The notes under the pieces are model-generated. The model did no database searches, was not told the DNA's origin, and saw only the letters and a list, made by a program, of their open reading frames with translations. A DNA stretch of 64,000 bases from Candidatus Nanoarchaeia archaeon (lineage in GTDB: Archaea; Nanobdellota; Nanobdellia; Woesearchaeales; DATDTY01). Positions 7,535 through 62,509 of the stretch are shown in pieces; position 1 is the stretch's first letter, and every line of letters starts with the position of its first letter. Location of the stretch: positions 4,008 through 68,007 of the forward strand of contig DATDTY010000051.1 of the NCBI GenBank assembly GCA_035290625.1, read 5' to 3'. A program made the position numbers and the translations under genes.

Positions 7535-7648
7535 GCCAAAGCTATTGATAGCCTTAAATTCGAGTATATATAAGTTATATTGTATATAAGGTATATGGGC
7601 AATGTATATATAATTTTTGGTCTCATTCTTAGATAAGGAGGTGATAGC
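7535..7648. promoter_or_regulatory. AT-rich divergent promoter region with TATA-like repeats (tatatataagttatattgtatataaggtatat)
   Basis: Intergenic region between the divergent PhoU-like gene and the small acidic ORF. It has multiple TATA-like boxes and a strong SD (AAGGAGGTGA) before the GTG at 7649. Confidence 0.4.
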
Positions 7649-7801
7649 GTGAAAGAACAGGAGTATGCAGGGGCCAAAGAAGAATTTGAGCCAATAGAGG
7701 GAGTGATTTATGACGAGGAGGAGAGGAACGCCCTGCTTGAGAATGACGAGATCGCTCCCTGGGAAGAAGGATTCATGGATGGGTATGACGGGGCAGGGTG
7801 A
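7649..7801 (+). CDS. Small acidic protein (50 aa) with EEGFMDGYD motif
   Basis: GTG start 9 nt after a perfect SD AAGGAGGTGA. Paralogous to the ORF at 11748-11948 (shared EEF..IY..LL..EE[DG]GFM[DQ]GY[DE] pattern). Confidence 0.45.
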   Translation: MKEQEYAGAKEEFEPIEGVIYDEEERNALLENDEIAPWEEGFMDGYDGAG

Positions 7802-7893
7802 GATTTCATCGTCTGCCCTTTTTGCGAGGGTTTTTCCTATAGTTAACAATAGCGATAGGCTTTTAAAATATACAAGGTTACAGTCCATTTCAA

Positions 7894-9198: not shown

Positions 9199-9307
9199 AG
9201 TTGCGCTCGCCTGAGTCTTAAGTATAATCCCACATAATCCCGGCAAGCGGGATGACCACGGCAGCAGTTAAACGATAGCCTTTTAAACGGCCGGGGGTTA
9301 ACCGATA

Positions 9308-10621: not shown

Positions 10622-11595
10622 TCCTTGAGGGATCTAGGGGCCTTAGCAGGGTATTCCTGAAGGGAAAGGAGAATTTTTGTCAGTTCTACCAGGAATTCCA
10701 GGATCGGCTCCATGCTGGTTAGAATGAGAAGTTCTGCGGGAGGGATTTTCTCCTTCAAATCTTTTATCCTTCTGATATACATATCTCTGTTGTGGTACAT
10801 ATCGGTTACTCTGTTCGGGTCATATTTGTAGAAAATACCATAAAAGAGGTGTAGGTTTTTATAAATTAAGGTGATGTTCGTAATGGAAGAGTCATCCATC
10901 TTCTTTTTGAGCAAGGCAGCCTCACGAGCAGAATATTTTACGGTGTCACGAACTTTATCAAGCATGGCTATGGTGTGGTAGATCACTGTAACCTTTTCAG
11001 GATCAGGCGGATATCCTCTTTTGTTAAGGATTCTTAGGGTATAGCTTGCAAACTTTGTAACAAGCCCATGCTTGTCCTCTATCGTGTGGATTTTATCATT
11101 TTTATGCTGCTTCAGACCTTCGATAAAGGTTTCGAGCATATCCAGCAAAAGCATAAATATCCGGCGGAGAACCACTTCAAAGTCCTTGAACGACGGTTCC
11201 GACAAATCTTTCAACATACAGAAATCATCCTTGAAACTGAGGACTTCAACCCCAATGAGGCGCTCAACCTCAGTCCGAATAATGCTCCGCATGTCCACAA
11301 ATTCCCGTGTTCGGAAGTGATACGCAGAGGGCTTTGAAAAATGAATGCCTATCTCATCGAAACCTCTGATATATAAGCCGCGGATATAGATGATGATGGA
11401 TGTGCGGTCAAGACCAGAAACGTCAATCTCAATCTTTTTAACTTCCGGGATTCTCTCTTTGCTTACAACAATCTGTTGCCCCTTCTCCTCCACCTCGATC
11501 TCATCCCCCTTCCTGATGTTATGGCTAAGGCACCACTTCCTCGGCAATGAGACGAGCTGCGTTGAATGGCCTACCTGGATGATTTTCCGCTTCAT
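10618..11595 (-). CDS. AbrB/SpoVT-domain plus PhoU-domain regulator (second copy)
   Basis: MKRKIIQVGHSTQLVSLPRKWCLSHNIRKGDEIEV (AbrB-type N-domain) followed by a PhoU-like helical region. Same architecture and size (325 aa) as 6566-7534. Confidence 0.65.
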   Translation of the reverse strand: MKRKIIQVGHSTQLVSLPRKWCLSHNIRKGDEIEVEEKGQQIVVSKERIPEVKKIEIDVSGLDRTSIIIYIRGLYIRGFDEIGIHFSKPSAYHFRTREFVDMRSIIRTEVERLIGVEVLSFKDDFCMLKDLSEPSFKDFEVVLRRIFMLLLDMLETFIEGLKQHKNDKIHTIEDKHGLVTKFASYTLRILNKRGYPPDPEKVTVIYHTIAMLDKVRDTVKYSAREAALLKKKMDDSSITNITLIYKNLHLFYGIFYKYDPNRVTDMYHNRDMYIRRIKDLKEKIPPAELLILTSMEPILEFLVELTKILLSLQEYPAKAPRSLKD

Positions 11596-16396: not shown

Positions 16397-16490
16397 AGCC
16401 CCATGGTGTAGCGGTCAAATTCCTGTGAAGGAAGACGAAGCATCTTTGGTTCTGGGCCAAAGGACCTCGGTTCGAATCCGGGTGGGGCTA
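16397..16490 (+). tRNA. tRNA-Gln (anticodon CUG) with an about 20-nt insertion in the D-arm region (non-canonical intron)
   Basis: Acceptor AGCCCCA/TGGGGCT with discriminator A. Anticodon stem CTTTGG/CCAAAG with loop TTCTGGG (U33, CUG). T-arm CTCGG-TTCGAAT-CCGGG. 94 nt in total, so about 20 extra nt lie between the D-loop (GTGTAGCGGTCAA) and position 26. Confidence 0.6.
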
Positions 16491-19941: not shown

Positions 19942-21654
19942 ATGAATATGGTGTTTTTTGAGCTGAGCATCGTCATTATCGTTGCGACAGTGCTTGGAGG
20001 CCTGCTGAAGGCACTAAAGCAGCCCCTGATTCCGGCATATGTGATCGCAGGCCTGATTATAGGGCCTATTCTGGGATATGTAACTGATTCAGAGCTTATC
20101 AGCTCGCTTTCAGAGGTAGGCATCGCATTCCTTCTGTTCATTGTTGGGCTGGAGCTTGACTTCAAGAAGATCAGGAGCGTTGCCGGAGTTGCATTTGCTG
20201 CAGGGCTCATCAAGTCGTTGATCCTGTTTGCTGGAGGGGCATTCCTCGGAACGTGGTTCGGGTTTACAGGAACTGAAAGCTCCTACCTTGGCATAGTACT
20301 TGCTTTCTCCTCAACTGTTGTCGTAGTGAAGATGTACGCTGATACCAGGGAATTGGACACTCTGCATGGCAGGACTGTTATCGGGATTCTTCTTGCCGAA
20401 GACTTTCTGGCAATCCTTGCGCTCAGTGTGCTTTCAACAGGATCCGTATCTGTTGGAGATGCATCATTCATGCTTGCGAAGCTTGCAGGATTGCTGCTGG
20501 GCGCCATACTCTTTTCAAGATTTATTTTGGGCCCGCTGTACAAGTTTGCTGCCAAGAGCCAGGAGGTCTTCTTCCTGGTTTCCATCTCAATCGCCTTTCT
20601 TTTTGCCCTGGTTGCCAGCGGGTTGGGATTGAGCATCGTGATTGGGGCGTTTATTGCAGGAGTGGCGTTGGCAAACCTTCCTTATGCCTATGAGATTATC
20701 GGAAAGATAGTGCCGCTGAAGGATTTTTTTGCAACCATCTTTTTTGTCAGCCTGGGGCTTGTGCTGCCGCTCAACGAGATTCCTGCCATTGCCCTTCCCT
20801 TTGCAGTGTTGTTTGGTGTAGTCATCATCTTCAAGCCGCTGCTCGCCATGCTCATCAGTTCATTGCAGGGATTCACCAAGAGGCCGAGCTTCCTGGGAAG
20901 CATTTCAATAAGCCAGGTCTCTGAATTCTCCCTGATCATCGTTGCCCAGGCGATGGCGGTTGGAGCAGCAACAGGCCAGGAGCTCATAGGCCAGGATGTA
21001 TTTACCCTTACCGTGCTTCTTGCCATCTCCACGATGGCTGTGTCCTCCTACCTCATTGCCTATAAGGAGGCTATCTACGAGCAGCTCTCCCCCCTCCTGG
21101 GGATTTTCGAGCATCTGAGGGCAGGGAAACAGAGAGCTGAGTCAAAAAGAGTGAAGATCAAGCCGGAGATTATCCTTTTTGGCTACAACCGGATCGGGTA
21201 TAGCATTGTGCGAAAAGCAAAAGAGTTAAAAAAGAGAATCCTTATCATCGACTACGACCCGGAGGTTATCAGGCATTTGATTAAGAGGAAGACGCCATGC
21301 ATCTATGGGGACGTCACTGATCCGGAGATCCTCGATCGGGTGGATTTTGACACGTGCAAGATCCTCATCTCCACAGTTCCGGAATCGCATAATAACCTGC
21401 TGGTGCTGAGGAAGCTGCGAAAGATTTATCCGAAGATGATCATTTTTGTGACTGCAAATCATCTGCACGAAGCATTGGAGCTGTACGAGGAGGGCGCTGA
21501 TTACGTAATCCTGCCGCATTTCCTCGGCGGCGAGCACGTCGGCGTATTGATCGGGCAGCTTAGCATAGACCTGAACAGGATACTCAAGCACCGGAAGATG
21601 CATATCAAGGAGCTGCATCAGAGGAAAAAAGTGGGGCACATCATCAGGCAATGA
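19942..21654 (+). CDS. Kef-type K+/H+ (CPA2) antiporter with C-terminal RCK/TrkA-N domain
   Basis: About 12 predicted TM helices followed by ILFGYNRIGYSIVRKAKELKKRILIIDYDPEV...IYGDVTDPEIL, a Rossmann RCK domain. Confidence 0.8.
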   Translation: MNMVFFELSIVIIVATVLGGLLKALKQPLIPAYVIAGLIIGPILGYVTDSELISSLSEVGIAFLLFIVGLELDFKKIRSVAGVAFAAGLIKSLILFAGGAFLGTWFGFTGTESSYLGIVLAFSSTVVVVKMYADTRELDTLHGRTVIGILLAEDFLAILALSVLSTGSVSVGDASFMLAKLAGLLLGAILFSRFILGPLYKFAAKSQEVFFLVSISIAFLFALVASGLGLSIVIGAFIAGVALANLPYAYEIIGKIVPLKDFFATIFFVSLGLVLPLNEIPAIALPFAVLFGVVIIFKPLLAMLISSLQGFTKRPSFLGSISISQVSEFSLIIVAQAMAVGAATGQELIGQDVFTLTVLLAISTMAVSSYLIAYKEAIYEQLSPLLGIFEHLRAGKQRAESKRVKIKPEIILFGYNRIGYSIVRKAKELKKRILIIDYDPEVIRHLIKRKTPCIYGDVTDPEILDRVDFDTCKILISTVPESHNNLLVLRKLRKIYPKMIIFVTANHLHEALELYEEGADYVILPHFLGGEHVGVLIGQLSIDLNRILKHRKMHIKELHQRKKVGHIIRQ

Positions 21655-23162
21655 CAGACGACAGCGTTTATAGGCTCGTGAAAGCAGGCTTCATAAAATC
21701 GAAGTACAAGCCGCTGTATGCAGGGCTTGATGCATCAGCAAGAGCTAGGCTTGCAAAGAGCTTCCCCGGCAAGGAGGTAGAAGAGCATGCTGACGTGGAT
21801 ATCATAGAGATCGCAAAGGACCAGATGATCTCCACAGAGTACCCGGCCTCAAAGAGGAAATGGAGGCTTATCTTCGAAAGCACAAGGAACATTGAAGAGA
21901 CCTATTTCTGGATCCTGGACTACGCAAGAGATATGGGATTCTCAGAGTTTATCAAGACAACAGACAGCTTCACAGCAAGTGAGCATAGCTCATTTTTTGG
22001 AACAGCCCAGCAGCGCCTGGGATTGCAGCAGGACAGGGTATCGCAGTATCTTGCTACGATTGGCAAGATGGTCAAGGAGCTTTTCCAGCTGGTTCGGGAG
22101 CTGCGCATCCTGGATGAAAGGCTCGCGTACTACAGCGACAGCTATGACTATTTAAGCAGGAGCAGGGAAAGCGCAGAAATCACACTCAAAGGAACATTCA
22201 TCGACCAGGTCGAAGGAGGCGCAAAGAACCCTGCTTCGGTCTATGGAATGTCCAGGGAGCTTCAGTTTACTGTTCTCCCTGACCTTTTCTTTACTGTGCA
22301 CCCCAAGACAAGCAGGGATGTTGATGAGGCAGTGGACAGGCTTGAGTTTAACAGAAAGGTGAAGGAGGTGCTCAAGAGAAAGCTAAGGAGCTACATGGAG
22401 TGGAAGGAGCACACCTTTGACGAGCTTAAGAACAGGAGACGGTTTACGCTGAAGTACCTCAAGCAGCACTATGATGTGATCAAGATGTACATGACCTGGG
22501 TGAGGCCGTATTTGAGGAACATCCGCAGGCTGCAGTCAGAGGCAATGGATATCAAAAAAGCGAGCAGCGTGGACAGCATCTCTGCGTTTGAGGGATCGCT
22601 TATCGATATTGAGTTTATGGCTCTTGCCCTTCCTCAAGGCAATAAGGATGTGTACGCAGTTTCCCTGATCACCTTTGAGTACAGGACGATTCCTGCGATG
22701 AGCTTCCAGCAGGAGGGCTTTCAGCGAGGGCCGCTCCATTCAGGCGAGATCAAGATGAATTTCCGGTGTTATGCATGGACACGGGAGCAGATCAACAGCT
22801 ATAAGCAGATGAAAGAGGAGGAAGACATGGCTCTGCTCGGAGTCATTGATGGCTCAGTCCGGGCTGCGATGGAGGCATTGGGGACAGAGCTGGAGACCTA
22901 CTTGAAAGAAGCAGGGGAAGAGACATTCCAGAAAGGCGCTGTGAATGCGCCGGTAAGGGAGCCGGGTGTTGCTGAGCCGTTTATCGGAATTCTGAAGGGA
23001 TTTAAAGAGCTGTTTGGCGTGAAATCCGCGCCTGGCAAGAAGCCCAAGGTGGATGCCTTTAAGAGGGAGAAGGAAACGGACAATGCGTTTAAGACTGTAA
23101 AATCATTGACCTGGGCGATCTATAAGAATTACAAGAAGGCCCATAAGATGGTATCGTGGTAG
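21651..23162 (+). CDS. Hypothetical protein (503 aa), translationally coupled to the antiporter
   Basis: ATGA overlap with the upstream gene. Largely helical and charged; no recognisable motif. Confidence 0.45.
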   Translation: MTDDSVYRLVKAGFIKSKYKPLYAGLDASARARLAKSFPGKEVEEHADVDIIEIAKDQMISTEYPASKRKWRLIFESTRNIEETYFWILDYARDMGFSEFIKTTDSFTASEHSSFFGTAQQRLGLQQDRVSQYLATIGKMVKELFQLVRELRILDERLAYYSDSYDYLSRSRESAEITLKGTFIDQVEGGAKNPASVYGMSRELQFTVLPDLFFTVHPKTSRDVDEAVDRLEFNRKVKEVLKRKLRSYMEWKEHTFDELKNRRRFTLKYLKQHYDVIKMYMTWVRPYLRNIRRLQSEAMDIKKASSVDSISAFEGSLIDIEFMALALPQGNKDVYAVSLITFEYRTIPAMSFQQEGFQRGPLHSGEIKMNFRCYAWTREQINSYKQMKEEEDMALLGVIDGSVRAAMEALGTELETYLKEAGEETFQKGAVNAPVREPGVAEPFIGILKGFKELFGVKSAPGKKPKVDAFKREKETDNAFKTVKSLTWAIYKNYKKAHKMVSW

Positions 23163-27114: not shown

Positions 27115-27215
27115 GGCTTCGGTGAAAATCAGTGCTGCCGCCTCTTTGCGAGGCTCTTAAGGGATAGTATGAGCTGAGTTGAGGGGGTTGCCCCATACGG
27201 GGCTTCACCGAAGCC
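27115..27215 (-). mobile_element. Internally deleted (101 bp) copy of the MITE family B element
   Basis: Termini GGCTTCGGTGAA...TTCACCGAAGCC (12-bp TIR). Its reverse complement matches the 3' third of the 60306-60510 copy (gaagccccgtatggg..caaccccctcaactcag..gagcctcgcaaagaggcggcagcactgattttcacc). Confidence 0.6.
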
Positions 27216-33501: not shown

Positions 33502-34479
33502 CTAGGCAATCTTATAGAGGTCTTCGTTTCCTTCCCTAAGAGGAAACTTTTTTGTATGTGTTGCATTCACAATAAGAGCTACGGTTTCGAGAGGAAGGAC
33601 AGCTGTAGCCTTCTCTACAGAGGCATTCGGATAGCTTGGCTGGCCTTTGCCGTACATTTTGAATTCAAAGAGGAGAGGCGCATCTACTTTTTCAGGAATG
33701 CTTACTTTATTTTTGCCCATCGATGTTCCAGAATAAATTCCCTTTAAAACATTTTCAACGATGCTCTGAGGTATTGTGCCTCCTTTTCCTTTCTTGTAGA
33801 TGTTTCCTGGGTCAATAGCCCTGTTCGGGATATTTTCCAGTGTAGGTGAAGCTAAGAATCGTTTAAGGGTCTTGGAAACCTCCTCAGATTCGCCAGGGTT
33901 GTTTGGATTCCAGCGCTTTCCTGCTTCCATGATGTAGGTTACGAGATTGTTATTCTTAGCCGCAGAAGGGGAGAGCTTAAAATCAATGCTCTTCTGCGAT
34001 TTGGATGCATCCTCTCCTGCATTCCACAGTGGTCCGTATGCCCCCAGCATCGCATACCATAGTATTTCCTCGACAGGGCCCTGAAGTTTAAAGGAAGAGG
34101 AATTTGCTGTTTTAATGCCTTCCAGCCAGTTGAGATAATCTATGACCTTTTGCTCTACAGTCATGCGCTTAATGAGAGGACCAGAGTTATTTTGCAAATA
34201 GGTCTGGAGATCAATTAGCAAAGGCATAGGGTCATCCTTGTTTTGAGCGAGCAGAGGAGAAGGCATTCGGCCTGTTAAACGAGTGAAGAGCTGAGCCACC
34301 AGAGTATTGTTCTTCGGATTGATGAGATCCTGCGCAACAGAGTCTTGGCCTTTTTGGATTCTTTTCTTCGGGCTCAACTCATGCTGCAAAACCTGGTGGA
34401 TATTGTACAAGTCTGCAGCCTTAGTGGAGTCCACTAAAGCCGTCTGATAAGGTAAGAGCCCCGTCATTTTGTCTGCCAT
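33502..34479 (-). CDS. Hypothetical protein (325 aa, N/K-rich)
   Basis: Intact ORF downstream of an AT-rich region. No motif recognised. Confidence 0.4.
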   Translation of the reverse strand: MADKMTGLLPYQTALVDSTKAADLYNIHQVLQHELSPKKRIQKGQDSVAQDLINPKNNTLVAQLFTRLTGRMPSPLLAQNKDDPMPLLIDLQTYLQNNSGPLIKRMTVEQKVIDYLNWLEGIKTANSSSFKLQGPVEEILWYAMLGAYGPLWNAGEDASKSQKSIDFKLSPSAAKNNNLVTYIMEAGKRWNPNNPGESEEVSKTLKRFLASPTLENIPNRAIDPGNIYKKGKGGTIPQSIVENVLKGIYSGTSMGKNKVSIPEKVDAPLLFEFKMYGKGQPSYPNASVEKATAVLPLETVALIVNATHTKKFPLREGNEDLYKIA

Positions 34480-38537: not shown

Positions 38538-39761
38538 TCAGAGCTTATGATTCATCTTCAGTTTTTTTGTCTCAAGGTATTTCTGGTTGATCTCATTCGG
38601 CTTGGTTCTTAGAGGGATTGCCTTTTCAACCTCAATCCCGTATCCCTTAAGCTGCTCCTCTTTTTCCGGGTTGTTTGTGAGCAGCCGGATGCTTTTCACC
38701 TTGAGGTGCTTGAGCAGTGCGGCTGCAGGCAGATAGTCCCTGCTATCCGCCTCAAAGCCAAGCTCGATATTTGCGTCATGCGTATCCTTTCCCTTGTCCT
38801 GGAGGCTATAGGCTTTGATTTTCTGCACAAGGCCAATCCCCCTCCCTTCCTGGTTCAGATAGATGAGAAGCCCTGCAGGCTCTCTCTGGATCATCTTCAG
38901 CGCCTTCATCAGCTGCTCCCTGCAATCGCACCGCAGCGAGTAGAGGGTCTCTGAGGTAAAACAGCTCGAATGAACCCGTACAAGGACGTTGGAATCATCC
39001 ACCTTCCCTTTAGAGAGCACAACGATCTCCTGGCCTGCAACAGAAAAGACGCTGATCTCAAAATCCCCGTACAGCGTTGGAAGCTTGGATGATGCCTCAC
39101 GCACAACTGAGAGCTCAGACTGCCTGTCAGCAAAGTATTCCTTAAGCCCTGTGACTGAGGGGAGTATTCCGTCTGCGTTCCCAAAATGCTCTTCTTTGTG
39201 CCATCCGGTCAGGACTCCAATAAATGGGATCTCAGCATTCTTTGCAGTTTCCAGATCATGGACGCTGTCTCCAACATAGACGACCTGATCAGGCCTCAGC
39301 CCATACCTCTCAAGAAAAACCTGAAAGATCATCTTGCTGGGCTTTTCATATCCCAGATCTTCTGATCCCTGGATGCTGCTAAAATACTCCTTGGGGATCC
39401 CTGTCTGGCTCAGCAGGGTAATAAGGCTTTCTCTGGATCTTGAGGAAATGATGTGGAGAGCATACCCTGCTTGCTTGAGGAATTTGAGGGTCTCTGAAGC
39501 GCCTTCAATCTGCCTCCTCGGAAATTCCTTTGCTATCTCCAGATAGGTCTGCTTGAAAAGCTCAGGATGCGCCCTTGGCCAGAGCTTCCGGATGATGACT
39601 TCCCAGGGCTTGCCGAACTGGGATGCAATCTCCTCATCTGTTGGAATGCGAAGATCAAGCTTCTCTGCTGCCTTTTTATGGCTTTCTAACCCTATCTCTT
39701 TGTATTGGATAAGAGTATCATCAAAATCAAAGACGATCGCCTTGATGGTGTTCTTGTTCAT
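38538..39761 (-). CDS. ribA: Fusion protein: HAD-superfamily phosphatase domain plus GTP cyclohydrolase II (RibA)
   Basis: N-terminal FDFDDTL (HAD motif I) and GDSVHD (motif IV). The C-terminus has the RibA zinc motif CFTSE...RCDCREQ, YLNQEGRGIGL and LLTNNPEK. Confidence 0.75.
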   Translation of the reverse strand: MNKNTIKAIVFDFDDTLIQYKEIGLESHKKAAEKLDLRIPTDEEIASQFGKPWEVIIRKLWPRAHPELFKQTYLEIAKEFPRRQIEGASETLKFLKQAGYALHIISSRSRESLITLLSQTGIPKEYFSSIQGSEDLGYEKPSKMIFQVFLERYGLRPDQVVYVGDSVHDLETAKNAEIPFIGVLTGWHKEEHFGNADGILPSVTGLKEYFADRQSELSVVREASSKLPTLYGDFEISVFSVAGQEIVVLSKGKVDDSNVLVRVHSSCFTSETLYSLRCDCREQLMKALKMIQREPAGLLIYLNQEGRGIGLVQKIKAYSLQDKGKDTHDANIELGFEADSRDYLPAAALLKHLKVKSIRLLTNNPEKEEQLKGYGIEVEKAIPLRTKPNEINQKYLETKKLKMNHKL

Positions 39762-39874
39762 GGTAGCTGTTCCAGTCCTATCTCAGTCCTATCTCCTGTC
39801 TATCTGTTGTCCTTTACTTAATATCTTCTATTTGCTGTCTTCTCGTATTTGGTATCTTCTAGGTACTGTCTCTT

Positions 39875-40951
39875 TTATTTGCCGTCCTGCCTGTAGCGTG
39901 CAGTAATGAGGAGATCTGGCCCAAAGCGCTGGACATCCTGAAATTCAAGGCCAATTGCATTGCTGATTTCAGGGATCCTGCCCCCCATCACCGATATGCC
40001 GTCTCCCAGGAGCTTTGGGACAACGATGAAGTAAAAAGCATCCACATGCCTTCCCTTGATGAAGGATGTGAAGACCTTTGAGCCGCCCTCAACAAAGAGG
40101 TGGCTGATGTTCCTTTGCCCAAGCTTCTCCAAAAGATCCGTAATGTCTATGCCAGTTCCGCTGCGTTTGCACAGCAGAACCTCTGCCCTTGCCGTAAGGA
40201 GCTCTTGTTTCTCTTTTTTTAAATCTTCCGGAACTGCGATGATGGTCCTGCCAGGCTGGCTGAAGATTCTTGCCTCAGGGAAAATATCCCCTGAATGTGA
40301 CAATACGATCCGGGTTGGATAGTATACCATTTCAGTTCTCGCGCTAAGCTGAGGATTGTCCTCCCTGACAGTGCTGGCTCCAACAAGGATGCCATCAATA
40401 GTATTCCGAAAATCATGAACCCAGAGCCGCGACTGCTCTGAGCTTATCCACTGGGAACTATGAGAAACTGTTGCAATCTTGCCATCAAGTGTTATGGCTG
40501 CCTTTAATGAGACATACGGAAGCCCTGTGGTTATCCATTTGAAGAACGGAGCATTGAGAGCCTTGGCTTGCTCCTCTGCAATGCCGCATACCACCTCTAT
40601 TCCTGCATCCCTGAGTTTCTGCAGTGATTTTCCATTGGTTTTGGGATTTGGGTCTTTTGTTGCAACAATGACTTTTTTGATGCCTGAATCTATGATCCTG
40701 TCAACACAAGGAGGAGTTCTCCCATAGTGAAAACAGGGCTCAAGATTGACGATCATGGTTGCGCCTTCTACTGATTCTGTGCAGGCGTTCAGACAATTGA
40801 TCTCTGCATGAGGCTCTCCAGCTTTTTGGTGGTGTCCTTTCCCGATTATCCTTCCATTTTTGACAATCAGGCAGCCGACATAGGGATTAGGATGGGGGAA
40901 ACCTTGCCTAGCAAGCTCCAGAGCCTGCTCCATGAGTTGGGTGATATCCAT
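39875..40951 (-). CDS. ribD: Riboflavin biosynthesis deaminase-reductase (RibD)
   Basis: Deaminase zinc motif HAEINCL...LEPCFHYGRTPPC, then a DHFR-like reductase half. The probable start is MDITQLMEQALELA. The ORF-track start at 41029 would overlap the upstream gene by about 120 nt. Confidence 0.75.
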   Translation of the reverse strand: MDITQLMEQALELARQGFPHPNPYVGCLIVKNGRIIGKGHHQKAGEPHAEINCLNACTESVEGATMIVNLEPCFHYGRTPPCVDRIIDSGIKKVIVATKDPNPKTNGKSLQKLRDAGIEVVCGIAEEQAKALNAPFFKWITTGLPYVSLKAAITLDGKIATVSHSSQWISSEQSRLWVHDFRNTIDGILVGASTVREDNPQLSARTEMVYYPTRIVLSHSGDIFPEARIFSQPGRTIIAVPEDLKKEKQELLTARAEVLLCKRSGTGIDITDLLEKLGQRNISHLFVEGGSKVFTSFIKGRHVDAFYFIVVPKLLGDGISVMGGRIPEISNAIGLEFQDVQRFGPDLLITARYRQDGK

Positions 40952-41825
40952 GAGTGCTATGATCTCCAAGCATGATGAGCACAGCCTCAGCAGCGCGCTG
41001 TGCATACTCCTTGTGGCGCTGCACTGCAAGCTCCCATGTAATTCTTGGGCCTACGATTCCGAGGCCGATTGGCTTCCCATATGCAATCGCAAGGTCTGCA
41101 ATCTTTCTGGCAGCATTCTCTCCAACAATTCTGTCATGATCTGTCTTTCCTTGGATGACAACTGCGAGCGTGACAATTCCATCAACCTGCTTGACAAGCC
41201 TCTGGCAGGCAAGCGGAACCTCAAATGCTCCAGGAACGTGAACAGCCTGAATACGGCAACCATGGTTTTTCAGGACATTGGCTGCAACCTCAAGCATTGC
41301 GTGGGTCAACTCGCTGTTGAAGTCAGAGACAACAATGCCTATGCTGAGCTGCCCCCCTTCTTTATCCAATGGCCCGGCATGCTCCCTGCCCTGCCTCCTT
41401 CCTTTGCCTGCAAAAGGGGTTAACGCGGTTTTTCCCTTCAGCAGCTCGAGAGCATTCAATGCGTGCTTGATCGTCCTGTCTTCAAAAATACTGATGAGGT
41501 CTTTGGCGTCCCTGCCCTCTTCCTCATGAACAACAACTTCCAGGATATGGGTATTCGTGAGGAGCTGAACTTGCTGGATTCCGAGAGAGGCTTCATGGCT
41601 GCACTGTTTGTCAATCTGCTCCTTTCCAGCCATGCCCAAACAAAGCACAAGAGTGCACTTTTCCTCCTCAATCAGCTTCTTTGCGGCAACAGGCAGGTCC
41701 TTGATTCCAGGGACGGTGGTGCGCTCAATCTCGATGCCAGGAGCCTGCTCTCGGATAGTCTTGATCGCCAGGCCCCCCATGTCATACCTGCTGAACGTGG
41801 TGTCTGCAATGCCGATCTTTGCCAT
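40908..41825 (-). CDS. Fusion of archaeal-type riboflavin synthase (RibC, MJ1184-like) and 6,7-dimethyl-8-ribityllumazine synthase (RibH)
   Basis: N-half MAKIGIADTTFSRYDMGGLAIKTI...VPGIKDLPVAAKKL...LTPFAGKGRRQG closely parallels archaeal RibC. C-half IGIVVSDFNSELTHAML...VHVPGAFEVPLA...VVIQGKTDHD is a lumazine synthase. Confidence 0.75.
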   Translation of the reverse strand: MAKIGIADTTFSRYDMGGLAIKTIREQAPGIEIERTTVPGIKDLPVAAKKLIEEEKCTLVLCLGMAGKEQIDKQCSHEASLGIQQVQLLTNTHILEVVVHEEEGRDAKDLISIFEDRTIKHALNALELLKGKTALTPFAGKGRRQGREHAGPLDKEGGQLSIGIVVSDFNSELTHAMLEVAANVLKNHGCRIQAVHVPGAFEVPLACQRLVKQVDGIVTLAVVIQGKTDHDRIVGENAARKIADLAIAYGKPIGLGIVGPRITWELAVQRHKEYAQRAAEAVLIMLGDHSTHGYHPTHGAGSGAC

Positions 41826-41915
41826 AGCCTCATGAGAACTCGTTCTACTTAAAAATGTTTGTGTACTCAGGAATGAGTAGAAATGATGCACGCAACCTCT
41901 CCTGCGTTACAAGAT

Positions 41916-48839: not shown

Positions 48840-49044
48840 GGCTGCGGTGAAAATCTCGCGGTGGCTTGCGAGTGAGCTCGTTCTCACTCGCTCACCAGCC
48901 ACCGGCTGCCGCCAAGTTCGCAATTTGCGTTCTTTGTCCTCATAATCGACATTCGTCCCCGATGGGGCATCCCCCTCGAAGTCGATGCCCTGATTCCAGT
49001 TGTGCTGCTCACAAAGGGCGGCAGCATTGATTTTCACCGCAGCC
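48840..49044 (+). mobile_element. MITE-like non-coding element, family B (205 bp, perfect 16-bp TIR GGCTGCGGTGAAAATC)
   Basis: Termini ggctgcggtgaaaatc...gattttcaccgcagcc. An internal 9-bp-stem hairpin gcgagtgag-ctcgtt-ctcactcgc. A second full copy lies at 60306-60510 and a deleted copy at 27115-27215. It sits 4 bp after tRNA-Ala and 3 bp before the ATG of the HD gene. Confidence 0.7.
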
Positions 49045-51159: not shown

Positions 51160-51312
51160 TGCCGCTGTAGCTCAGCCTGGTTAGAGCGCTACATGCTTGT
51201 TTTCGCAAGTCAGCGAGGCTCATATGTTTGAGCGATGATCCGAAAGGAGATGACATACTCAGGCGATAACTGGGTGACGTAGAGGTCAGGGGCTCAAATC
51301 CCCTCAGCGGCA
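51160..51312 (+). tRNA. Intron-containing tRNA (about 153 nt; roughly 78-nt insertion in the anticodon region; anticodon unresolved, CUU/Lys possible)
   Basis: Acceptor GCCGCTG/CAGCGGC with discriminator A. Canonical D-arm TAGCTCAGCCTGGTTAGAGCG (A14, G18G19, A21). T-arm AGGGG-CTCAAAT-CCCCT with C48, G53:C61. Between position 26 and CGTAG (39-43) lies a structured insert containing the CTTG-TTTTCG-CAAG hairpin. A31/C39 would mispair if the intron sits at 37/38. Confidence 0.6.
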
Positions 51313-51429: not shown

Positions 51430-51672
51430 TGGCTCTGTAGAAAGTCCGGCATCAGTTCTGCGAGCTTCTTCGGCCACATAAGCAGTGCTGACGGAGGGTT
51501 GCCCCAATCAAAACGCCGTCTGGCGTTTTGGTGTGCCAAAAGAGCGTAGCTCTTTTTAGCACCTTCGGGGGTGTCAGCATGCACCGATAGAGTCACAAGC
51601 GAGCCGGCGGCTAGCGAGCAAGCTCACCTTGCTCGCTTGCAAGCCACTGCCGACTGACTTTCTACAGAGCCA
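51430..51672 (+). mobile_element. MITE-like non-coding element, family A (243 bp, 17-bp TIR TGGCTCTGTAGAAAGTC)
   Basis: Termini tggctctgtagaaagtc...gactttctacagagcca. About 90% identical across its length to 61356-61602, including the hairpins caaaacgcc-gtct-ggcgttttg and gcgagcaag-ctcacc-ttgctcgc. No ORF of likely significance. Confidence 0.65.
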
Positions 51673-53681: not shown

Positions 53682-54890
53682 ATGGACTATTATTTGCAGG
53701 ATATATCGAGATTAGAAGGACAGCCCAAAAGAACAATCGCAGATTATGCGGAGCAGAATGGGATTTTGGTTCCTCGCAGATTTGATTCTTTGGCAGAAGC
53801 CAGAAGGTCTCATAAAGGCATTTTTCTAAGGAGCGAACACCCTCAAGAGTATAATGGGATTTCTGGCTTGTTAAATAGTTTCAGCCTGTCTTCATTAACT
53901 TTTCCAGTTAGAGGTTCTCGGAGCTTAGAAGAGGTTAAACAAAGATATTTTACGCAGGGAGAAATGCAGCCAGATGCGTATAAAGAATATTGTAAACAGC
54001 TAGGATTAAGTGAAGATGAATTCATAAAACAAGCCTCTTTTTCAATATGGGAAAAATTGGGCGGATTAAACAGGACCGTAATTGCCGATTCCTCGATTGC
54101 TGGCAGGTATCACATTATGAGTCTTTGTTATGAGAAAAATAACAAGCTGACTAATTATGCCATTGTAGAGGAAGGAAGATTAGCACATGAGTTTATCAAA
54201 CCTCTTCCAGATGAGTTGAGGGGTGGTTTAGGAGCTCTAATAGAAACCTATGAGCAGGTAAGAAATTTAGGAAGATTTGACCCTAATAATTGCCCAATAA
54301 TGGAATTTCGAACGCATAACGGCAAGAATTATTTTCTTCAGTACCATAGAACAAGAGATTTTTCACCAGCAGGATTTATGTTAGATAGAGGTCTAGAGGA
54401 TGGGGAAATTGAAGTGCCATGGGTGCGTGGAGCAACATCGAAAGAGGGAGGGGCGTTTAAGATTACGGTTTATTATGCAGGAGGAAAGTTTGATCCTGAA
54501 GATGAAGACGGCTCTTTTGATTTGCACTGGAATTGGATTTTTTCAGAGCTGCAATTCAAGAGAAGGAGATTACAAAGTATAGACAGCACGGTAGACGGCG
54601 GAAGCTTTGCAAATTTGGTTGGAAATCATGAGCATAGGTCAAAAATGTTCAAACCTGAGATTTCTGCAGTTTTTCCAATTGAATCGGTAATGAGGGACAA
54701 TGAAGTTTTGTGGGGAAACGAAAATTGGGATCTTGGCGACGGCAAGAAATATTCCCCAAGAGACCCAATTCTCAAAGATGGTGAAACTATTTTTAGTTTT
54801 GGGGAAGAAACAAAGAAAGGACACAATTCATATATGAATCTTCATTTTGTTTCTGATGGAAGAAGGGCGTTTGTAAGGAGGATAGGATAA
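53682..54890 (+). CDS. Hypothetical protein (402 aa), low-GC gene
   Basis: Intact ORF with markedly AT-richer codon usage than flanking genes. No recognisable motif. Confidence 0.45.
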   Translation: MDYYLQDISRLEGQPKRTIADYAEQNGILVPRRFDSLAEARRSHKGIFLRSEHPQEYNGISGLLNSFSLSSLTFPVRGSRSLEEVKQRYFTQGEMQPDAYKEYCKQLGLSEDEFIKQASFSIWEKLGGLNRTVIADSSIAGRYHIMSLCYEKNNKLTNYAIVEEGRLAHEFIKPLPDELRGGLGALIETYEQVRNLGRFDPNNCPIMEFRTHNGKNYFLQYHRTRDFSPAGFMLDRGLEDGEIEVPWVRGATSKEGGAFKITVYYAGGKFDPEDEDGSFDLHWNWIFSELQFKRRRLQSIDSTVDGGSFANLVGNHEHRSKMFKPEISAVFPIESVMRDNEVLWGNENWDLGDGKKYSPRDPILKDGETIFSFGEETKKGHNSYMNLHFVSDGRRAFVRRIG

Positions 54891-57671: not shown

Positions 57672-59033
57672 TCACTTTCTCATCATAAAAAGCTTCAGCA
57701 CGAGAAGCCCGGCAGCTGTAAGAATGACGAGATTTGCAAGGATAAGAAGAGCCACCTTAATGCCAGGGCTAATGCTAGAGATTTCCTCAGCTGCTGGCTC
57801 TGCAGGCTCTAGAGGTTCTCCGGGCTCTGGGAAGAGTTCTTCTTCAGGTTGTGCCTCAGGCTGTTCAGGTTCAGCCACTGGCTGCACCTCTGGCGCTGCA
57901 GGCGCGCACATCACCTCAAGGAACACACGCCCCAGGTTTGACAGCTGGTCAGTATCATAATAAGATCTGACCTCAATGTTGTGATTGCCAGCAGGAGCAT
58001 TGGCAGGCAGGGCAATCCTCCGCGTGATATGGCTGGAATAATCCTCAGTTTCAGGATCATCAAGGTATATCGGCCCCTCACTGAGCACGATCCCCAAGGC
58101 CGGATTTTGGATTGTGTAGGCTGCGCTCTCCTCCTCTCCCTGGCCGTAATTCAATAAATCAAAGCTAAGGGTTACAGATTCTCCGCATGAGGCTTTGACA
58201 GGATCGATCTGCAGATTCTGGACAAGGATATCATGATTCTCCCTGCGTATATCAAGTTCAAGCTCGAGTTCAGCAGAGTGGATCCTCCCATTCTCATCCT
58301 CGCCTTCTGCCTCAATATGCACAACATAGGTATCTTCATCAATAAGGCCTGGAAGCGTGAACCTGAAGGTTTCAAGCCTGGTCCTGTCTGCAGGAAGCTC
58401 AAAGGTGTTGGACTCCTTTTCCAAGTCCTCTCCATCATTGATACCCTCAAGTCTGACAGTGATGAATGCGTCCTCCAGCTTCGTCTTTTCAATAGTTGTA
58501 AAAGTGTTCTTGACCCGAACATCAAAGGTTATCGTTGAGCCCGGCTTTGCAGTCTTCGGGATCGCTGTTGCATTCTGCAGGTCTTTGTTTTCCTCATTGT
58601 CGATCGTAACATCCAGATCATCAAGAATGAGCCTTCCGATGATCGTGGCTTTAAGGGCGAATGTTGAGCTTATTTGAGTGCCGTCTGTCTGGTTTGCTGT
58701 TACGATGACATTTCCCAGCGTCCTTGGGCCCTGCACCTGGCTGAACGGAATTGTTGCATTTACAGCTATTGTTGCAGAAGCTCCTGCAGCCAATGAGCTG
58801 AGATTTGCCGGGCTGAAAGTAACGGAAAAAGGAGCATCACTCGATAAGGAAAGATTCACAAGCTGCTGATCCCCGGAATTCCGAATCTCGAATTGGGCTG
58901 ACCCTGTCGTATTAATCCCGATAGCCCCAAAATTCACCTCAGAAGGAACAGCAAGCTGCCCTGCTGCGCTAACCATACCTGCAAGCAAGACAAACCAAAG
59001 CAGGTGCATAAGGTGCTTCATGAGGCTAACCAC
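57672..59033 (-). CDS. Cell-surface protein with signal peptide, low-complexity PE-rich linker and C-terminal TM anchor
   Basis: N-terminal hydrophobic signal, Ig-like repetitive body, PEQPEAQPEEELFPEPGEPLEPAEP linker, then SPGIKVALLILANLVILTAAGLLVLKLFMMRK (PGF-CTERM-like anchor with PGI). Confidence 0.5.
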   Translation of the reverse strand: MVSLMKHLMHLLWFVLLAGMVSAAGQLAVPSEVNFGAIGINTTGSAQFEIRNSGDQQLVNLSLSSDAPFSVTFSPANLSSLAAGASATIAVNATIPFSQVQGPRTLGNVIVTANQTDGTQISSTFALKATIIGRLILDDLDVTIDNEENKDLQNATAIPKTAKPGSTITFDVRVKNTFTTIEKTKLEDAFITVRLEGINDGEDLEKESNTFELPADRTRLETFRFTLPGLIDEDTYVVHIEAEGEDENGRIHSAELELELDIRRENHDILVQNLQIDPVKASCGESVTLSFDLLNYGQGEEESAAYTIQNPALGIVLSEGPIYLDDPETEDYSSHITRRIALPANAPAGNHNIEVRSYYDTDQLSNLGRVFLEVMCAPAAPEVQPVAEPEQPEAQPEEELFPEPGEPLEPAEPAAEEISSISPGIKVALLILANLVILTAAGLLVLKLFMMRK

Positions 59034-59081: not shown

Positions 59082-60260
59082 TCAAAATCGGGGCTGCAGA
59101 CTTGCCAGGCTCTCCCTCAACTCAGAGTGCTTCAGGCCGTAGACCTGAAGAGGGATATGATGCAGATGGCTGTCTAAAGCCTGCCTGCACGCCATTGCCC
59201 CTTTTCTGACACCATGGCTATGGCCGGAAACAGCATCTGTAAACTGGATCACGAGGTCATTGCCAAGCCTCTGAACAAGACCGGGGATGTGAGAAGCTCC
59301 TACCCTGCAAGCAAGGCCCATGGAGCTCTTAACCCCGTGCCAGGGCTTGGCAAGGCTGCGTTCCTCAATAAGCCTCTTGTCAATCACGTCATGGACATGG
59401 ACAGAAGCATCAGCATTCATTGGTCCCGGCAGGGAGCCGATATGAACGATGTCTGCTCCCGCCAGCCTGCAGAGTTTTGCGCAGGCATGCGAGGACATAT
59501 GGGGCATCCTGACGCTTCGCTGCAGCTGGATAGCAACGGGAACATCAGCCTCACGAAGGTTCTGGAGTGAAGAAAAACCTGAAAGGTTGAGTACAACTGC
59601 CTCACAGCCAAGAGTATGGGCAAAATCTGCCCTCTTCACTGTCTCCGAACCCGTCACATTTGGCATATACATCTTATGCCCTCCGTTCAGCTGCTCAGCT
59701 TTTTTCTTTCTCCGATGCGTCTGAAAGACGCGTTCCTTGAAACGATTCGATGGAAGGTTTGTGAGGGAAGGGGCATCAGCAACGATATCCATCCCTGTCC
59801 ATGCCTCATAGGCATTCATGGAAAACTCATACGAAGACCCCTGCAGCAATGAAGCCTCAAGCAGGGCCTGGTTGGTCCCAATCAGTTTTCGGATTCCCTT
59901 CACGCCAAATCTTGGGCCCGGAAAGGATTTCACTAAAGTCCGCGGAAATTGCATATCAAGAAGCGTTGCCCTCTTTACAGAAGGAAGCTGCAGATGGCCA
60001 GTAAGGCTATGGCTGATCTGATCTGCGTTCCCCGGCTCAAAGAGATCAGCAGGATAGCGTATCAACGCAACCTGTCCCCCCTTGTCAAGGGATACCACCG
60101 CGGGAGCGTCTCCTCTAACAAATGCCTCCGGAGATACGCCAATGCTTGCAGCAGCAACATGCCTGCAGGCATCCTGGAATGAAACTGCCTGAGCAGGCTC
60201 GATTGCATACTCGGCAATGACGTCAGACTTGCTGAAACGTGTTGACAGGAACTGGAACAT
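59082..60260 (-). CDS. RuBisCO large-subunit-like protein (RLP) with substituted carbamylation-site lysine
   Basis: C-terminal blocks MPHMSSHACAKLCRLAGADIVHIG, WHGVKSSMGLACRVGASHIPGLV and QFTDAVSGHSHG parallel the RuBisCO H294/R295, H327/K334 and GGG loops. The segment aligning to GGLDFTKDDE reads GMDIVADAPS, so K201 and E204 appear replaced. Confidence 0.65.
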   Translation of the reverse strand: MFQFLSTRFSKSDVIAEYAIEPAQAVSFQDACRHVAAASIGVSPEAFVRGDAPAVVSLDKGGQVALIRYPADLFEPGNADQISHSLTGHLQLPSVKRATLLDMQFPRTLVKSFPGPRFGVKGIRKLIGTNQALLEASLLQGSSYEFSMNAYEAWTGMDIVADAPSLTNLPSNRFKERVFQTHRRKKKAEQLNGGHKMYMPNVTGSETVKRADFAHTLGCEAVVLNLSGFSSLQNLREADVPVAIQLQRSVRMPHMSSHACAKLCRLAGADIVHIGSLPGPMNADASVHVHDVIDKRLIEERSLAKPWHGVKSSMGLACRVGASHIPGLVQRLGNDLVIQFTDAVSGHSHGVRKGAMACRQALDSHLHHIPLQVYGLKHSELRESLASLQPRF

Positions 60261-60305
60261 GCATCCACTGATGCTGAGACGCTATTTAAAGGTTTTGGAA
60301 GCCGG

Positions 60306-60510
60306 GGCTGCGGTGAAAATCTTGCTTCGCAGCTGCCGCCAGTACTCAAAAATGCTGTTCATTTTTGGTCGCTCCTGCGGAGCATCTCGGCTTGTGTCGC
60401 CCTTCTGTATGCATCGTTGAAGCCCCGTATGGGACAACCCCCTCAACTCAGTCTATGGCAATCCTCAAGAGCCTCGCAAAGAGGCGGCAGCACTGATTTT
60501 CACCGCAGCC
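60306..60510 (+). mobile_element. MITE-like non-coding element, family B (205 bp, perfect 16-bp TIR GGCTGCGGTGAAAATC)
   Basis: Same termini and length as 48840-49044. The internal sequence is only partly shared (ggctgccgcc and gcagcac tgattttcaccgcagcc ends). Intergenic between two minus-strand genes. Confidence 0.7.
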
Positions 60511-60528: not shown

Positions 60529-61314
60529 TCATCTGCTGTATTTATCATGCCGGTATTCTGATATCAGATAAAACGCAGTTATTGTGTATATCCAAAAGAA
60601 GAGGTACGGCAGAACATAGATCCGGAATCCGAAGATCGAAAGAGGAAAAAGGTACTTCTGAAAAAAGTAGGGCATGATCAAAAGCTCGGGAAGGATAATC
60701 CAGGTGGATGCGAACCCAGTAACCCTGATGACCCGGGTAAACTTTACATGCAGCCTCATCAGCTTTGCAAGGAAGTATCCAAGAAGGATAGACACTGCCC
60801 ACACCATCGTGTATTTTATCGAATACCCTATAAAAAGGACGAACAGCAGCACAGGAAGGCTTGCCAGAAAGCCTACGCTTAGGATGTCCTTAAGAAACTC
60901 TCTTTTTTCCAGCAAATCCCCGAAAGATGACCATTTGTAATTCTTCGTAGCAAAGAAAGAATGCACTGCAAAGCCGTCAGCGTCTGCAAACACAAACTCA
61001 GAGGTCCTGTTAACCTTGCCTTCAGTGTCGATCGTGATATAAGGGTTTCCCGAAGGGATGAGGATGGGAGAGGTGGTCTCCATCTTCACAGTCAGATTGA
61101 GCACAGAGAATTTTGACAGCGCCTCATCAACACGCGACGCAGATTGGGTATACGCCGGGGCAGCAATAAGCAGGGAGAGGAACAGGGAGAAAAATATCAG
61201 AGAATAGAAATAGGCAATCACATACCTCTTCTTCCGCGAAGCGATAATCTTATAGTGATGGGGGCTTAAGGTCTCGATAATTGTCTTGAAGAAATGGATA
61301 TAATGGTCAAACAT
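60529..61314 (-). CDS. Hypothetical integral membrane protein (261 aa)
   Basis: Several hydrophobic helices. No motif recognised. Confidence 0.4.
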   Translation of the reverse strand: MFDHYIHFFKTIIETLSPHHYKIIASRKKRYVIAYFYSLIFFSLFLSLLIAAPAYTQSASRVDEALSKFSVLNLTVKMETTSPILIPSGNPYITIDTEGKVNRTSEFVFADADGFAVHSFFATKNYKWSSFGDLLEKREFLKDILSVGFLASLPVLLFVLFIGYSIKYTMVWAVSILLGYFLAKLMRLHVKFTRVIRVTGFASTWIILPELLIMPYFFQKYLFPLSIFGFRIYVLPYLFFWIYTITAFYLISEYRHDKYSR

Positions 61315-61355: not shown

Positions 61356-61602
61356 TGGGGCTCAGCAGAAAGTCCGGTATCCCTTCTGCGAGCTTCTTCG
61401 CAGTCATAACCGCCGCTGACAGAGGGTTGCCCCAATCAAAACGCCCTCTGGCGTTTTGGTGTGCCAAAAGAGCGTAGCTCTTTTTAGCACCTTCGGGGGT
61501 GTCAGCAATCGCAGGGGCAAGCGCAAGCGAGCCGGTGGCTAGCGAGCAAGCTCGCCTTGCTCGCTTGCAAGCCACTGCCGATTGACTTTCTACTGAGCCC
61601 CA
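61356..61602 (+). mobile_element. MITE-like non-coding element, family A (247 bp, 18-19 bp TIR TGGGGCTCAGCAGAAAGTC)
   Basis: Termini tggggctcagcagaaagtc...gactttctactgagcccca (1 mismatch). A near-identical copy lies at 51430-51672. Confidence 0.65.
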
Positions 61603-61738: not shown

Positions 61739-62509
61739 ATGAGCAGTGTAAGTCGCATAGGCGCGCATCCTGCATACGGCTACCAGCCGTACAGCCGCAG
61801 CAATGGGTATAAGCCGTTAGTGCCTCCAATCGCAAAGATCGTGCATGATGCAGCAAGTCTCTACAGCCAGGGCAGAGTCCAAGCTGCTCATCAGGCAATC
61901 AGCCAGATCCCTCTGAAAACCACGCACAATCCGATCTTGCAAGCCATCAGGCTAGAGGCTGAGTCAGTCCAATCAGCACGTGGCAGATTACGCAGCCAGG
62001 AAACACTGGAGGAACTCAGCAGCCACTACAACAGGATTCCAGCCATAGGCCAAGGAGTTGAGCAGGTTGTAAGAGCAGCAATCCCGAACAGGCAGTATCC
62101 GGCCAGAGAGAAAACAGGATATACTCCCCCGGTGGTTCCAACCGAAATCGCGGTTCAGACGCAAGGCCATGGGCTTGAGGCGCAGCTTGCTCTTGGCCAT
62201 GATAGCAGGCTGAGAGGGGCGCTTCCTGTTGATCTCATCGCACGCGGAGCAGCTCACGATTATCTGGACAATAAAGTGCTTAAAGTGATAGAAGAGAACC
62301 AGAAAGGAAAGAAGGCTGCAGCGCAAGCAGATGTGCCAAACCAGATTGTGGATCACGTTATCCACGGCAAGGGCCTTGCCAGCTCCAATCAGATCTATGG
62401 GATTGTAAATGAGATGGTTGCAACTGCTGTTCCGATCTTCGGAAACCACATTGACGTATTGCCCGTAGACAGAAATGCAACGATAGAGCCAACCATAATC
62501 ACCCAGTGA
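61739..62509 (+). CDS. Hypothetical protein (256 aa)
   Basis: GC-rich ORF with Ala/Gln-rich low complexity. Could be non-coding; no motif. Confidence 0.3.
   Translation: MSSVSRIGAHPAYGYQPYSRSNGYKPLVPPIAKIVHDAASLYSQGRVQAAHQAISQIPLKTTHNPILQAIRLEAESVQSARGRLRSQETLEELSSHYNRIPAIGQGVEQVVRAAIPNRQYPAREKTGYTPPVVPTEIAVQTQGHGLEAQLALGHDSRLRGALPVDLIARGAAHDYLDNKVLKVIEENQKGKKAAAQADVPNQIVDHVIHGKGLASSNQIYGIVNEMVATAVPIFGNHIDVLPVDRNATIEPTIITQ

Follow-up and report, generated by a model that had tools for sequence, protein, structure and literature searches.

RuBisCO large-subunit homologues comprise forms I to III, all rubiscos being treated as one clade, and form IV, a separate clade of RuBisCO-like proteins (RLPs) (PMC13454268). 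All characterised RLP chemistries pass through a Mg2+-stabilised enediolate (PMC10176493). In genomes of DPANN archaea and of the Candidate Phyla Radiation (CPR), the presence of RuBisCO is routinely used to infer an adenosine monophosphate (AMP)/nucleotide-salvage pathway that incorporates CO2. Here we analyse a gene for a RuBisCO large-subunit homologue located in a stretch of 64,000 nucleotides (contig DATDTY010000051.1 of assembly GCA_035290625.1, positions 4,008 to 68,007; the whole stretch is hereafter called the window) from a DPANN archaeon, 'Candidatus Nanoarchaeia archaeon', which is described as a tiny groundwater archaeon with a streamlined genome. A previous description made from the DNA letters (the sequence-only reading) had recognised this homologue and had proposed that it could represent a divergent form IV RLP with a different chemistry. 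We found instead that the encoded protein has lost nearly all of the canonical active-site residues, including the metal site, that its closest relatives are intact form III-b enzymes and that its gene has remained under purifying selection. The interpretation that we favour, with a probability of roughly 0.6, is that it would be a pseudoenzyme derived from form III and kept for a non-catalytic role.

The gene encodes a protein of 392 amino acids that matched both Pfam domains of the superfamily above their gathering thresholds: RuBisCO_large_N (PF02788) at residues 10-107 (E 7.8e-11) and RuBisCO_large (PF00016) at residues 145-386 (E 1.3e-23, 84 bits against a cut-off of 30). The AlphaFold2 (AF2) model, obtained from a 21-sequence alignment, had a mean pLDDT of 86.5 and a pTM of 0.88, with strands and helices alternating in the barrel domain; its only disordered stretch (residues 279-290) corresponds to the former loop-6 region. 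Comparison of this model by Foldseek with the form III RuBisCO of Pyrococcus horikoshii (2d69/2cwx) gave a TM-score of 0.86, and the closest solved structures found by phmmer were archaeal form III ones: 2cwx from P. horikoshii (E 3e-41), followed by 6hun, 8dht and 1geh. The protein therefore shows the fold that defines the superfamily, an alpha/beta N-terminal domain followed by a (beta/alpha)8 barrel. We regard homology and fold as established, domain matches and predicted structure agreeing that the two-domain RuBisCO fold is retained, and the sequence-only reading was correct in recognising a RuBisCO homologue. The GC content of the gene and its GC content at third codon positions (GC3) are typical of the window, where no second RuBisCO homologue was found. 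By its sequence features, this is a real, expressed-looking gene of the DPANN archaeon.

The active site was read after aligning 171 homologues with hmmalign to a profile of intact form I and form III sequences. A total of 21 canonical positions were examined, which we take to be the 19 of Tabita et al. together with H298 and G380. At these positions the protein shows the pattern -VSHLQ-AAPQR-HPMC-RTD, against ETWNIKKKDEHRHHKMSGGGG in 39 intact form III sequences: the only canonical residues that survive are R295 and H327, and 19 of the 21 are lost. The segment GMDIVADAPS was found opposite G-x-D-x-x-K-D-D-E-N in four independent alignments (phmmer, MAFFT, hmmalign, and AF2 combined with Foldseek), its counterpart being GIDLLKDDEN in 2cwx (phmmer) and G(G)LDIVKDDEN in intact relatives. 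The by-eye register that had set this segment against GGLDFTKDDE, with K201 and E204 missing, was thus right, and D203 turned out to be lost too, D202 being retained; no equivalent of K201, D203 or E204 appeared in the proper alignments. As for the other residues of the barrel, the KPK motif (K175/K177) has become LQ plus a deletion, K175 being the proton acceptor of the enzyme; H294 is replaced by Q, H298 is deleted, and K334, in loop 6, is replaced by P. The P1 phosphate site is changed as well (S379 to C, G381 to R, and G403/G404 to T/D), its GGG loop being replaced or deleted, and the change of G404 to D places an acidic residue inside this site. The RuBisCO active site is formed by the barrel of one subunit and the N-terminal domain of its dimer partner, the latter supplying E60, T65, W66 and N123. 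In the protein E60 is deleted, and T65, W66 and N123 have become V, S and H, respectively. Consequently, the conserved blocks cited in the sequence-only reading (H294/R295, H327/K334 and the GGG loop) do align, but their catalytic residues are not intact apart from R295 and H327, and the loss is greater than that reading had stated. In the only other lineage carrying the gene (locus L001), the motif of the orthologue reads GMDIVADALS, and R295 is lost too, being replaced by Q.

Compared with a bona fide RuBisCO, the protein thus has A/A/P in place of K201/D203/E204 and has kept none of the other catalytic and phosphate-binding residues beyond the two mentioned. Carboxylation is excluded because the carbamate/Mg2+ triad, K175, K334, H294 and both phosphate sites are lost, in agreement with the earlier assertion that the protein cannot be a carboxylase. 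The alternative chemistry put forward at the same time, that of an enolase or isomerase, did not hold up: known RLPs need the Mg2+-enediolate and the metal site is gone here, which makes such a reaction at the old site implausible. Form IV sequences included in the same alignment retain K175, K201 and D203, and the MtnW sequence (P0013) retains E204 as well. Judging from these residues, the protein is almost certainly neither a carboxylase nor an enzyme of any known RLP type.

Regarding its origin, the best NCBIfam model for the protein was that of type III RuBisCO (TIGR03326), with 176.8 bits against a cut-off of 497. The two MtnW/YkrW enolase models gave 97 bits (cut-off 409) and 82 bits (cut-off 514), and that of OiaX gave 46 (cut-off 700), none of these cut-offs being reached. 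Beyond the orthologues, the closest relatives were fully intact form III-b enzymes with 33-38% identity: two proteins encoded on Rifle groundwater contigs (P0003 and P0004, 38% identical), and then others from Aenigmarchaeota, Micrarchaeota and unclassified archaeal metagenome-assembled genomes. The distance to P0003 was 1.1, whereas representatives of forms IV and I lay at approximately 2.0. With intact form III-b sequences as the nearest ones, and forms IV and I at roughly double their distance, these comparisons suggest that the protein descends from form III-b and not from form IV, contrary to what had been proposed, and it was not placed in any RLP clade already characterised. Its distance to the form I outgroup was 2.04, versus 1.16-1.20 for intact form III (a branch about 0.85 substitutions per site longer), and therefore its lineage must have undergone a long episode of accelerated change. 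P0003 and P0004 were also considered as in-situ orthologues and rejected as coming from different organisms, given the lack of synteny, a GC content of 34-36% versus 48%, a low tetranucleotide correlation and the absence of copies of the mobile elements described below.

Other degenerate sequences occur around the protein. Among the 171 closest homologues (50%-identity cluster representatives plus GTDB loci), 50 lack K201 and 23 lack K201, D203 and E204. In a neighbour-joining (NJ) tree, bootstrap support for any deeper placement of the protein did not exceed 21%: it joined P0036 and P0049 at 21% and, at 12% or less, a loose assemblage of some 28 degenerate sequences. With such low values, this grouping was not accepted as evidence that the degenerate sequences are monophyletic, being likely due to long-branch attraction. 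When a profile made from 12 degenerate sequences was used in an indexed search, most hits were intact enzymes and form IV proteins, P0076 being the sole degenerate addition. One degenerate cluster from uncultured Woesearchaeota (P0063/P0247, VDS11144.1) has been deposited as 'Form III-b'. As a separate observation, P0137, P0150 and P0166 also miss K201, D203 and E204 and carry TCDP[ST] instead of TKDDE; they lie nearer to form I, at distances of 1.1-1.4, than to form III, and may represent a separate loss of the active site in another branch of the family.

A protein identical to this one is already in the databases as HLD43298.1, to which the Prokaryotic Genome Annotation Pipeline (PGAP) gave the name 'RuBisCO large subunit C-terminal-like domain-containing protein'. 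The same sequence corresponds to VDS11137.1/VDS11148.1 (UniRef A0A447IUE3), named 'RuBisCO long chain, Form III-b [uncultured DPANN archaeon]', where its degeneracy is unmentioned. From the matching form III-b naming, we infer that the VDS records stem from Jaffe et al. 2019. Such a name implies that the protein functions as a form III-b RuBisCO in AMP/nucleotide salvage, and the scores above both Pfam gathering thresholds are in line with it. However, the absence of 19 of the 21 catalytic or substrate-binding residues, a score far below the NCBIfam cut-off for type III and a PGAP name that does not go beyond a C-terminal-like domain make this possibility extremely improbable. In addition, Jaffe et al. 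2019 (PMC6389311) report retention of the critical residues only for 'most' of their new form III-b sequences, and they assigned to III-b some 70 DPANN sequences that fell outside its characterised clade, support for another placement being absent. Degenerate form III-b members are not described in that paper or in the later surveys examined, and full-text literature searches yielded no description of a dead form III RuBisCO or of a RuBisCO pseudoenzyme. We therefore consider the sequence to be public but mislabelled rather than new, its degenerate nature being apparently undescribed.

Two further copies of the gene were available for comparison. One is on a contig of the same species (L002), with 2 nucleotide differences and an intact open reading frame (ORF); the other is the L001 orthologue (L001:614-1795), with 83% amino-acid identity, which is represented in protein collections by a 267-amino-acid fragment (P0002). 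Beyond these two, nothing above 39% identity was found by word-indexed search, in GTDB (one genome per species), in JGI metagenome contigs or by HMMER, the exhaustive HMMER search covering 1.84 billion cluster representatives. Selection was estimated by the Nei-Gojobori method from one pair, the window gene and its syntenic L001 orthologue. The resulting dN/dS was 0.153 (bootstrap 95% interval 0.107-0.209) at a dS of 0.62, and the flanking genes, with a similar dS, gave 0.179 (downstream) and 0.144 (upstream). Values of 0.12-0.24 were obtained in each 65-codon block, and both domains gave similar figures (Table 1). Amino-acid differences between the window and L001 proteins affected 8.5% of the residues in strands, 15% of those in helices and 22% of those in loops of the AF2 secondary structure (strand versus rest, Fisher p = 0.03), and former active-site positions differed in 4 of 21 cases, the same as the 17% background (p = 0.76). 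These results indicate that selection preserves the fold, as modelled, and not the old pocket. They also correspond to the sequence signature of a pseudoenzyme, with catalytic residues gone and purifying selection present. As to a pseudogene, the frames of the window and L002 copies are intact and dN/dS is far from 1, the exception being one in-frame TGA in L001. We consider it likely that the gene encodes a functional protein and is not a pseudogene.

The TGA of L001 lends support to a different view, according to which the gene lost its function together with the active site and is a relic being lost, with a constraint that is residual or directed only against misfolding, and the L001 stop is the next step of decay. 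This TGA occupies codon 119, which is TTT in the window; as the conversion takes two nucleotide changes, a simple read error does not account for it. UGA recoding was considered and rejected: no other gene of L001 contains TGA in frame, and in the window TGA serves as a stop codon more often than any other. The strongly accelerated past evolution of the protein and the rarity of its lineage, which was found only in the window species and L001 among about 15 billion proteins, GTDB representative genomes and JGI metagenomes, would also be expected of a relic. Nevertheless, neutral drift over most of the divergence time cannot be reconciled with a dN/dS of 0.15 (0.11-0.21) at such a dS; neither frameshifts nor stops occur in the window and L002 copies, the substitutions respect secondary structure, and the promoter motif is conserved (see below). 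Moreover, the L001 stop lies exactly in the FPGPRFG linker that joins the N-terminal domain to the barrel, a GTG follows after 4 nt, and the two halves are in frame and equally constrained; this copy may then be a split gene and not a dead one. The L001 copy may thus be either freshly dead or working as two polypeptides, and we find decay of the gene quite unlikely.

A functional protein could also be a neofunctionalised enzyme, in which the RuBisCO barrel would have been re-tooled for a non-enediolate chemistry and would catalyse no known RLP reaction. TIM barrels are notoriously evolvable, and purifying selection equal to that of the neighbouring genes means that the protein does something. 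Furthermore, the window and L001 proteins have in common several polar or metal-capable residues: those replacing N123 (H), H294 (Q), S379 (C) and G404 (D), the conserved H327, and GHSHG/GHAHG. These residues, however, are common only to two sequences that are 83% identical, which provides no evidence of constraint; former active-site positions change at the background rate, and R295 and the replacements of K334, E204 and G381 differ between both proteins. Distant degenerate relatives (P0036, P0045, P0049, P0053 and P0076, among others) have no common replacement pattern, and no conserved pathway partner adjoins the gene in the window or in P0076. The latter comes from Hainich groundwater, on an archaeal contig with TFIIB, where it lies between genes for S8 and M50 peptidases and has nothing in common with the window. 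A re-tooled enzyme is thus unlikely, and we lean towards a non-catalytic protein over a new enzyme.

Several points nevertheless weigh against a form III-derived pseudoenzyme. The residues H89, Q247, H273, C318, D342 and H347/H349 now line the barrel and might constitute a new catalytic site; the selection estimate is a single pairwise comparison, averaged over the whole divergence time; the gene neighbourhood, consisting of housekeeping or surface-protein genes, is uninformative; and the only other lineage with the gene has an in-frame TGA in it, so that the gene may be dispensable. With these points taken into account, the pseudoenzyme that we favour would be a folded and probably still dimeric protein, acting by binding and not by catalysis. 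One possibility is that it heterodimerises with a live form III subunit and cripples both sites of the mixed dimer, thus behaving as a regulator or dominant-negative partner. Such a role is mechanistically plausible because each active site is built from two subunits. More tentatively, DPANN archaea (Woesearchaeota/Nanoarchaeia and relatives) might hold a set of unrecognised RuBisCO-fold pseudoenzymes that arose from form III-b independently of form IV RLPs and were selected for non-catalytic roles, for example as dominant-negative or regulatory heterodimer partners, or as sensors of sugar phosphates or nucleotides. The window protein would be among the most stripped of them.

The features of the locus are collected in Table 1. 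The TATA box of the gene ends 22 nt before its ATG, and the block CCAAAACCTTTAAATAGCGTC is invariant across the window, L001 and L002, with the surrounding spacer being variable. By comparison with the archaeal consensus, the TATA/BRE (B recognition element) block is consistent with a promoter for a leaderless or near-leaderless mRNA. In L001 the gene is also preceded by the DUF1189-like gene and followed by the gene for the Ig-like surface protein and aCPSF1, and the locus is syntenic in L002 as well. Pfam analysis of about 40 window ORFs identified aCPSF1/FttA, a proteasome subunit, FtsZ, GluRS, B12-dependent ribonucleotide reductase, riboflavin synthesis enzymes, PolB, GyrB, IMPDH and AdSS, and none of deoA, e2b2 and PRK was found within the 64-kb window. 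Gene context was consequently discarded as a guide to function: the genes here are housekeeping ones, and the neighbours kept in L001 encode a membrane protein and a surface protein of the Ig-like type.

The sequence-only reading had described the gene as flanked by two different miniature inverted-repeat transposable element (MITE)-like elements. Two different elements bounded by terminal inverted repeats (TIRs) are indeed present, but they do not flank the gene, since both are upstream of it, and the 48-bp spacer downstream contains no MITE, only the TATA box of the next gene. Element A lies upstream of the TATA box of the RuBisCO homologue, at a distance of 16 bp, and incomplete copies of it occur at 27115-27214 (87% identity) and 49008-49044. 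Element A is present in L002 and missing from the orthologous L001 spacer, and therefore must have been inserted recently, leaving the promoter intact. No clear target-site duplication was seen at its ends on reading the sequence. Element B recurs almost in full at 51431-51671, with 87.6% identity across 241 bp. Both elements have the features of MITEs, being short, non-coding, bounded by TIRs and present in multiple copies, with presence/absence polymorphism in the case of element A. To our knowledge, descriptions of such mobile elements in DPANN genomes are uncommon.

Table 1. Coordinates of the RuBisCO homologue gene, its parts and adjacent features in the window.
Feature	Position	Strand	Description and evidence
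Degenerate RuBisCO large-subunit homologue gene	59082..60260	-	392 aa; ORF, Pfam, AF2, Foldseek
Stop codon of the RuBisCO homologue	59082-59084	-	TGA
N-terminal domain	59907..60260	-	Codons 1-118, ends in FPGPRFG linker; Pfam, profile alignment, dN/dS 0.14
C-terminal TIM-barrel domain	59085..59906	-	Codons 119-392, former active site obliterated; Pfam, dN/dS 0.16, AF2
GMDIVADAPS segment	59766..59795	-	Residues 156-165, counterpart of GxDxxKDDEN; K201 to A, D203 to A, E204 to P
Putative archaeal promoter	60283..60298	-	TATA box TTTAAATA (60283-60290); purine-rich BRE-like CCAAAACC (60291-60298)
Upstream neighbour	60529..61314	-	261-aa membrane protein, weak DUF1189 match; syntenic in L001
Downstream neighbour	57672..59033	-	453-aa Ig-like/CARDB-type surface protein, own TTTAAATA box; syntenic in L001
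MITE-like element A	60306..60510	.	205 bp, perfect 16-nt TIRs (GGCTGCGGTGAAAATC); inverted repeat
MITE-like element B	61356..61602	.	247 bp, 19-nt TIRs; inverted repeat, beyond the upstream DUF1189-like gene

Other features of the window were recorded in the course of this analysis. Two tRNA predictions probably correspond to intron-containing archaeal tRNAs: one at 51161-51312 (+), found with Rfam over 152 nt and not by ARAGORN, and one at 16397-16490 (+), of 94 nt, to which ARAGORN assigned a four-base 'anticodon'. The region 6566-11595 contains tandem paralogues of 434 aa (7894-9198) and 437 aa (9308-10621), each with a guanylate-kinase-like domain and each paired with a divergent gene for a MazE/AbrB-domain protein (6566-7933, which also shows a weak PhoU match, and 10618-11595), an arrangement that looks like a duplicated two-gene module. 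At 38538-41891 (-) there is a riboflavin-synthesis cluster in which a HAD phosphatase is fused to GTP cyclohydrolase II (38538-39761), and whose lumazine-synthase ORF (40908-41891, -; 327 aa) has an N-terminal extension of about 180 aa and matches the DMRL_synthase model in two stretches. Four ORFs gave no Pfam match at E<=0.001: 21651-23162 (+, 503 aa), 33502-34479 (-, 325 aa), 53682-54890 (+, 402 aa) and 61739-62509 (+, 256 aa). An antisense ORF of 216 aa overlaps the last of them, which is perhaps not a genuine gene.

These results have consequences for the use of RuBisCO as a metabolic marker. The window protein ought to be left out of counts of functional RuBisCO, and surveys of DPANN and CPR genomes overestimate such counts: the whole metal site is missing from this protein, which nonetheless scores above the Pfam thresholds, and from no fewer than 22 of the 171 nearest clusters. 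A non-carboxylase lineage branching within form III, with its metal site lost, would represent a second route by which the fold leaves catalysis. The maintenance of a dead enzyme under such purifying selection in a streamlined genome implies a function worth finding, and the dimer architecture suggests a regulatory mechanism that can be tested.

In comparison with known systems, the protein most resembles archaeal form III-b RuBisCO, as found in Thermococcus kodakarensis, P. horikoshii and DPANN archaea: it has the same two-domain fold, its best sequence matches are to these enzymes, and it belongs to the same host group, DPANN. Motifs common to both are YP..LFE, GPxFG..GIR, RPL, GxD, K.Y.PN.T, ARLAGAD and HP.G..GA.A.RQA. 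It differs from them in lacking K175, K177, K201, D203, E204, H294, H298, K334, S379, G381, G403, G404, E60, T65, W66 and N123, and is probably a descendant of the form III-b family, not a functional member of it. The remaining degenerate form III-like sequences from DPANN occupy the same sequence neighbourhood and have also lost K201, D203 and E204, and one of them (P0036) has a D-x-PSLT motif (GIDMVCDCPSLTSIP) in common with the protein. However, they are only 27-33% identical to it, their replacements are unshared and their gene contexts differ; they may be a single family or the outcome of repeated, independent decay. Form IV RLPs, which include the MtnW/YkrW 2,3-diketo-5-methylthiopentyl-1-phosphate (DK-MTP-1-P) enolase, the Rhodospirillum rubrum and Chlorobium tepidum RLPs and the OiaX/OiaT proteins of apiose catabolism, are likewise non-carboxylating proteins with a substituted active site; the window protein is distinguished from them by being nearer to form III, by having no metal site and by having no conserved pathway neighbours. 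With pseudoenzymes such as pseudokinases, which are catalytically dead paralogues kept as regulators or scaffolds, it would have in common a fold that is kept under selection and catalytic residues that are lost, a likeness drawn at the level of function. On the basis of its sequence, we classify the protein as a RuBisCO homologue that does not carboxylate, that probably arose on its own from form III and that has lost even the metal site, and as a candidate pseudoenzyme.

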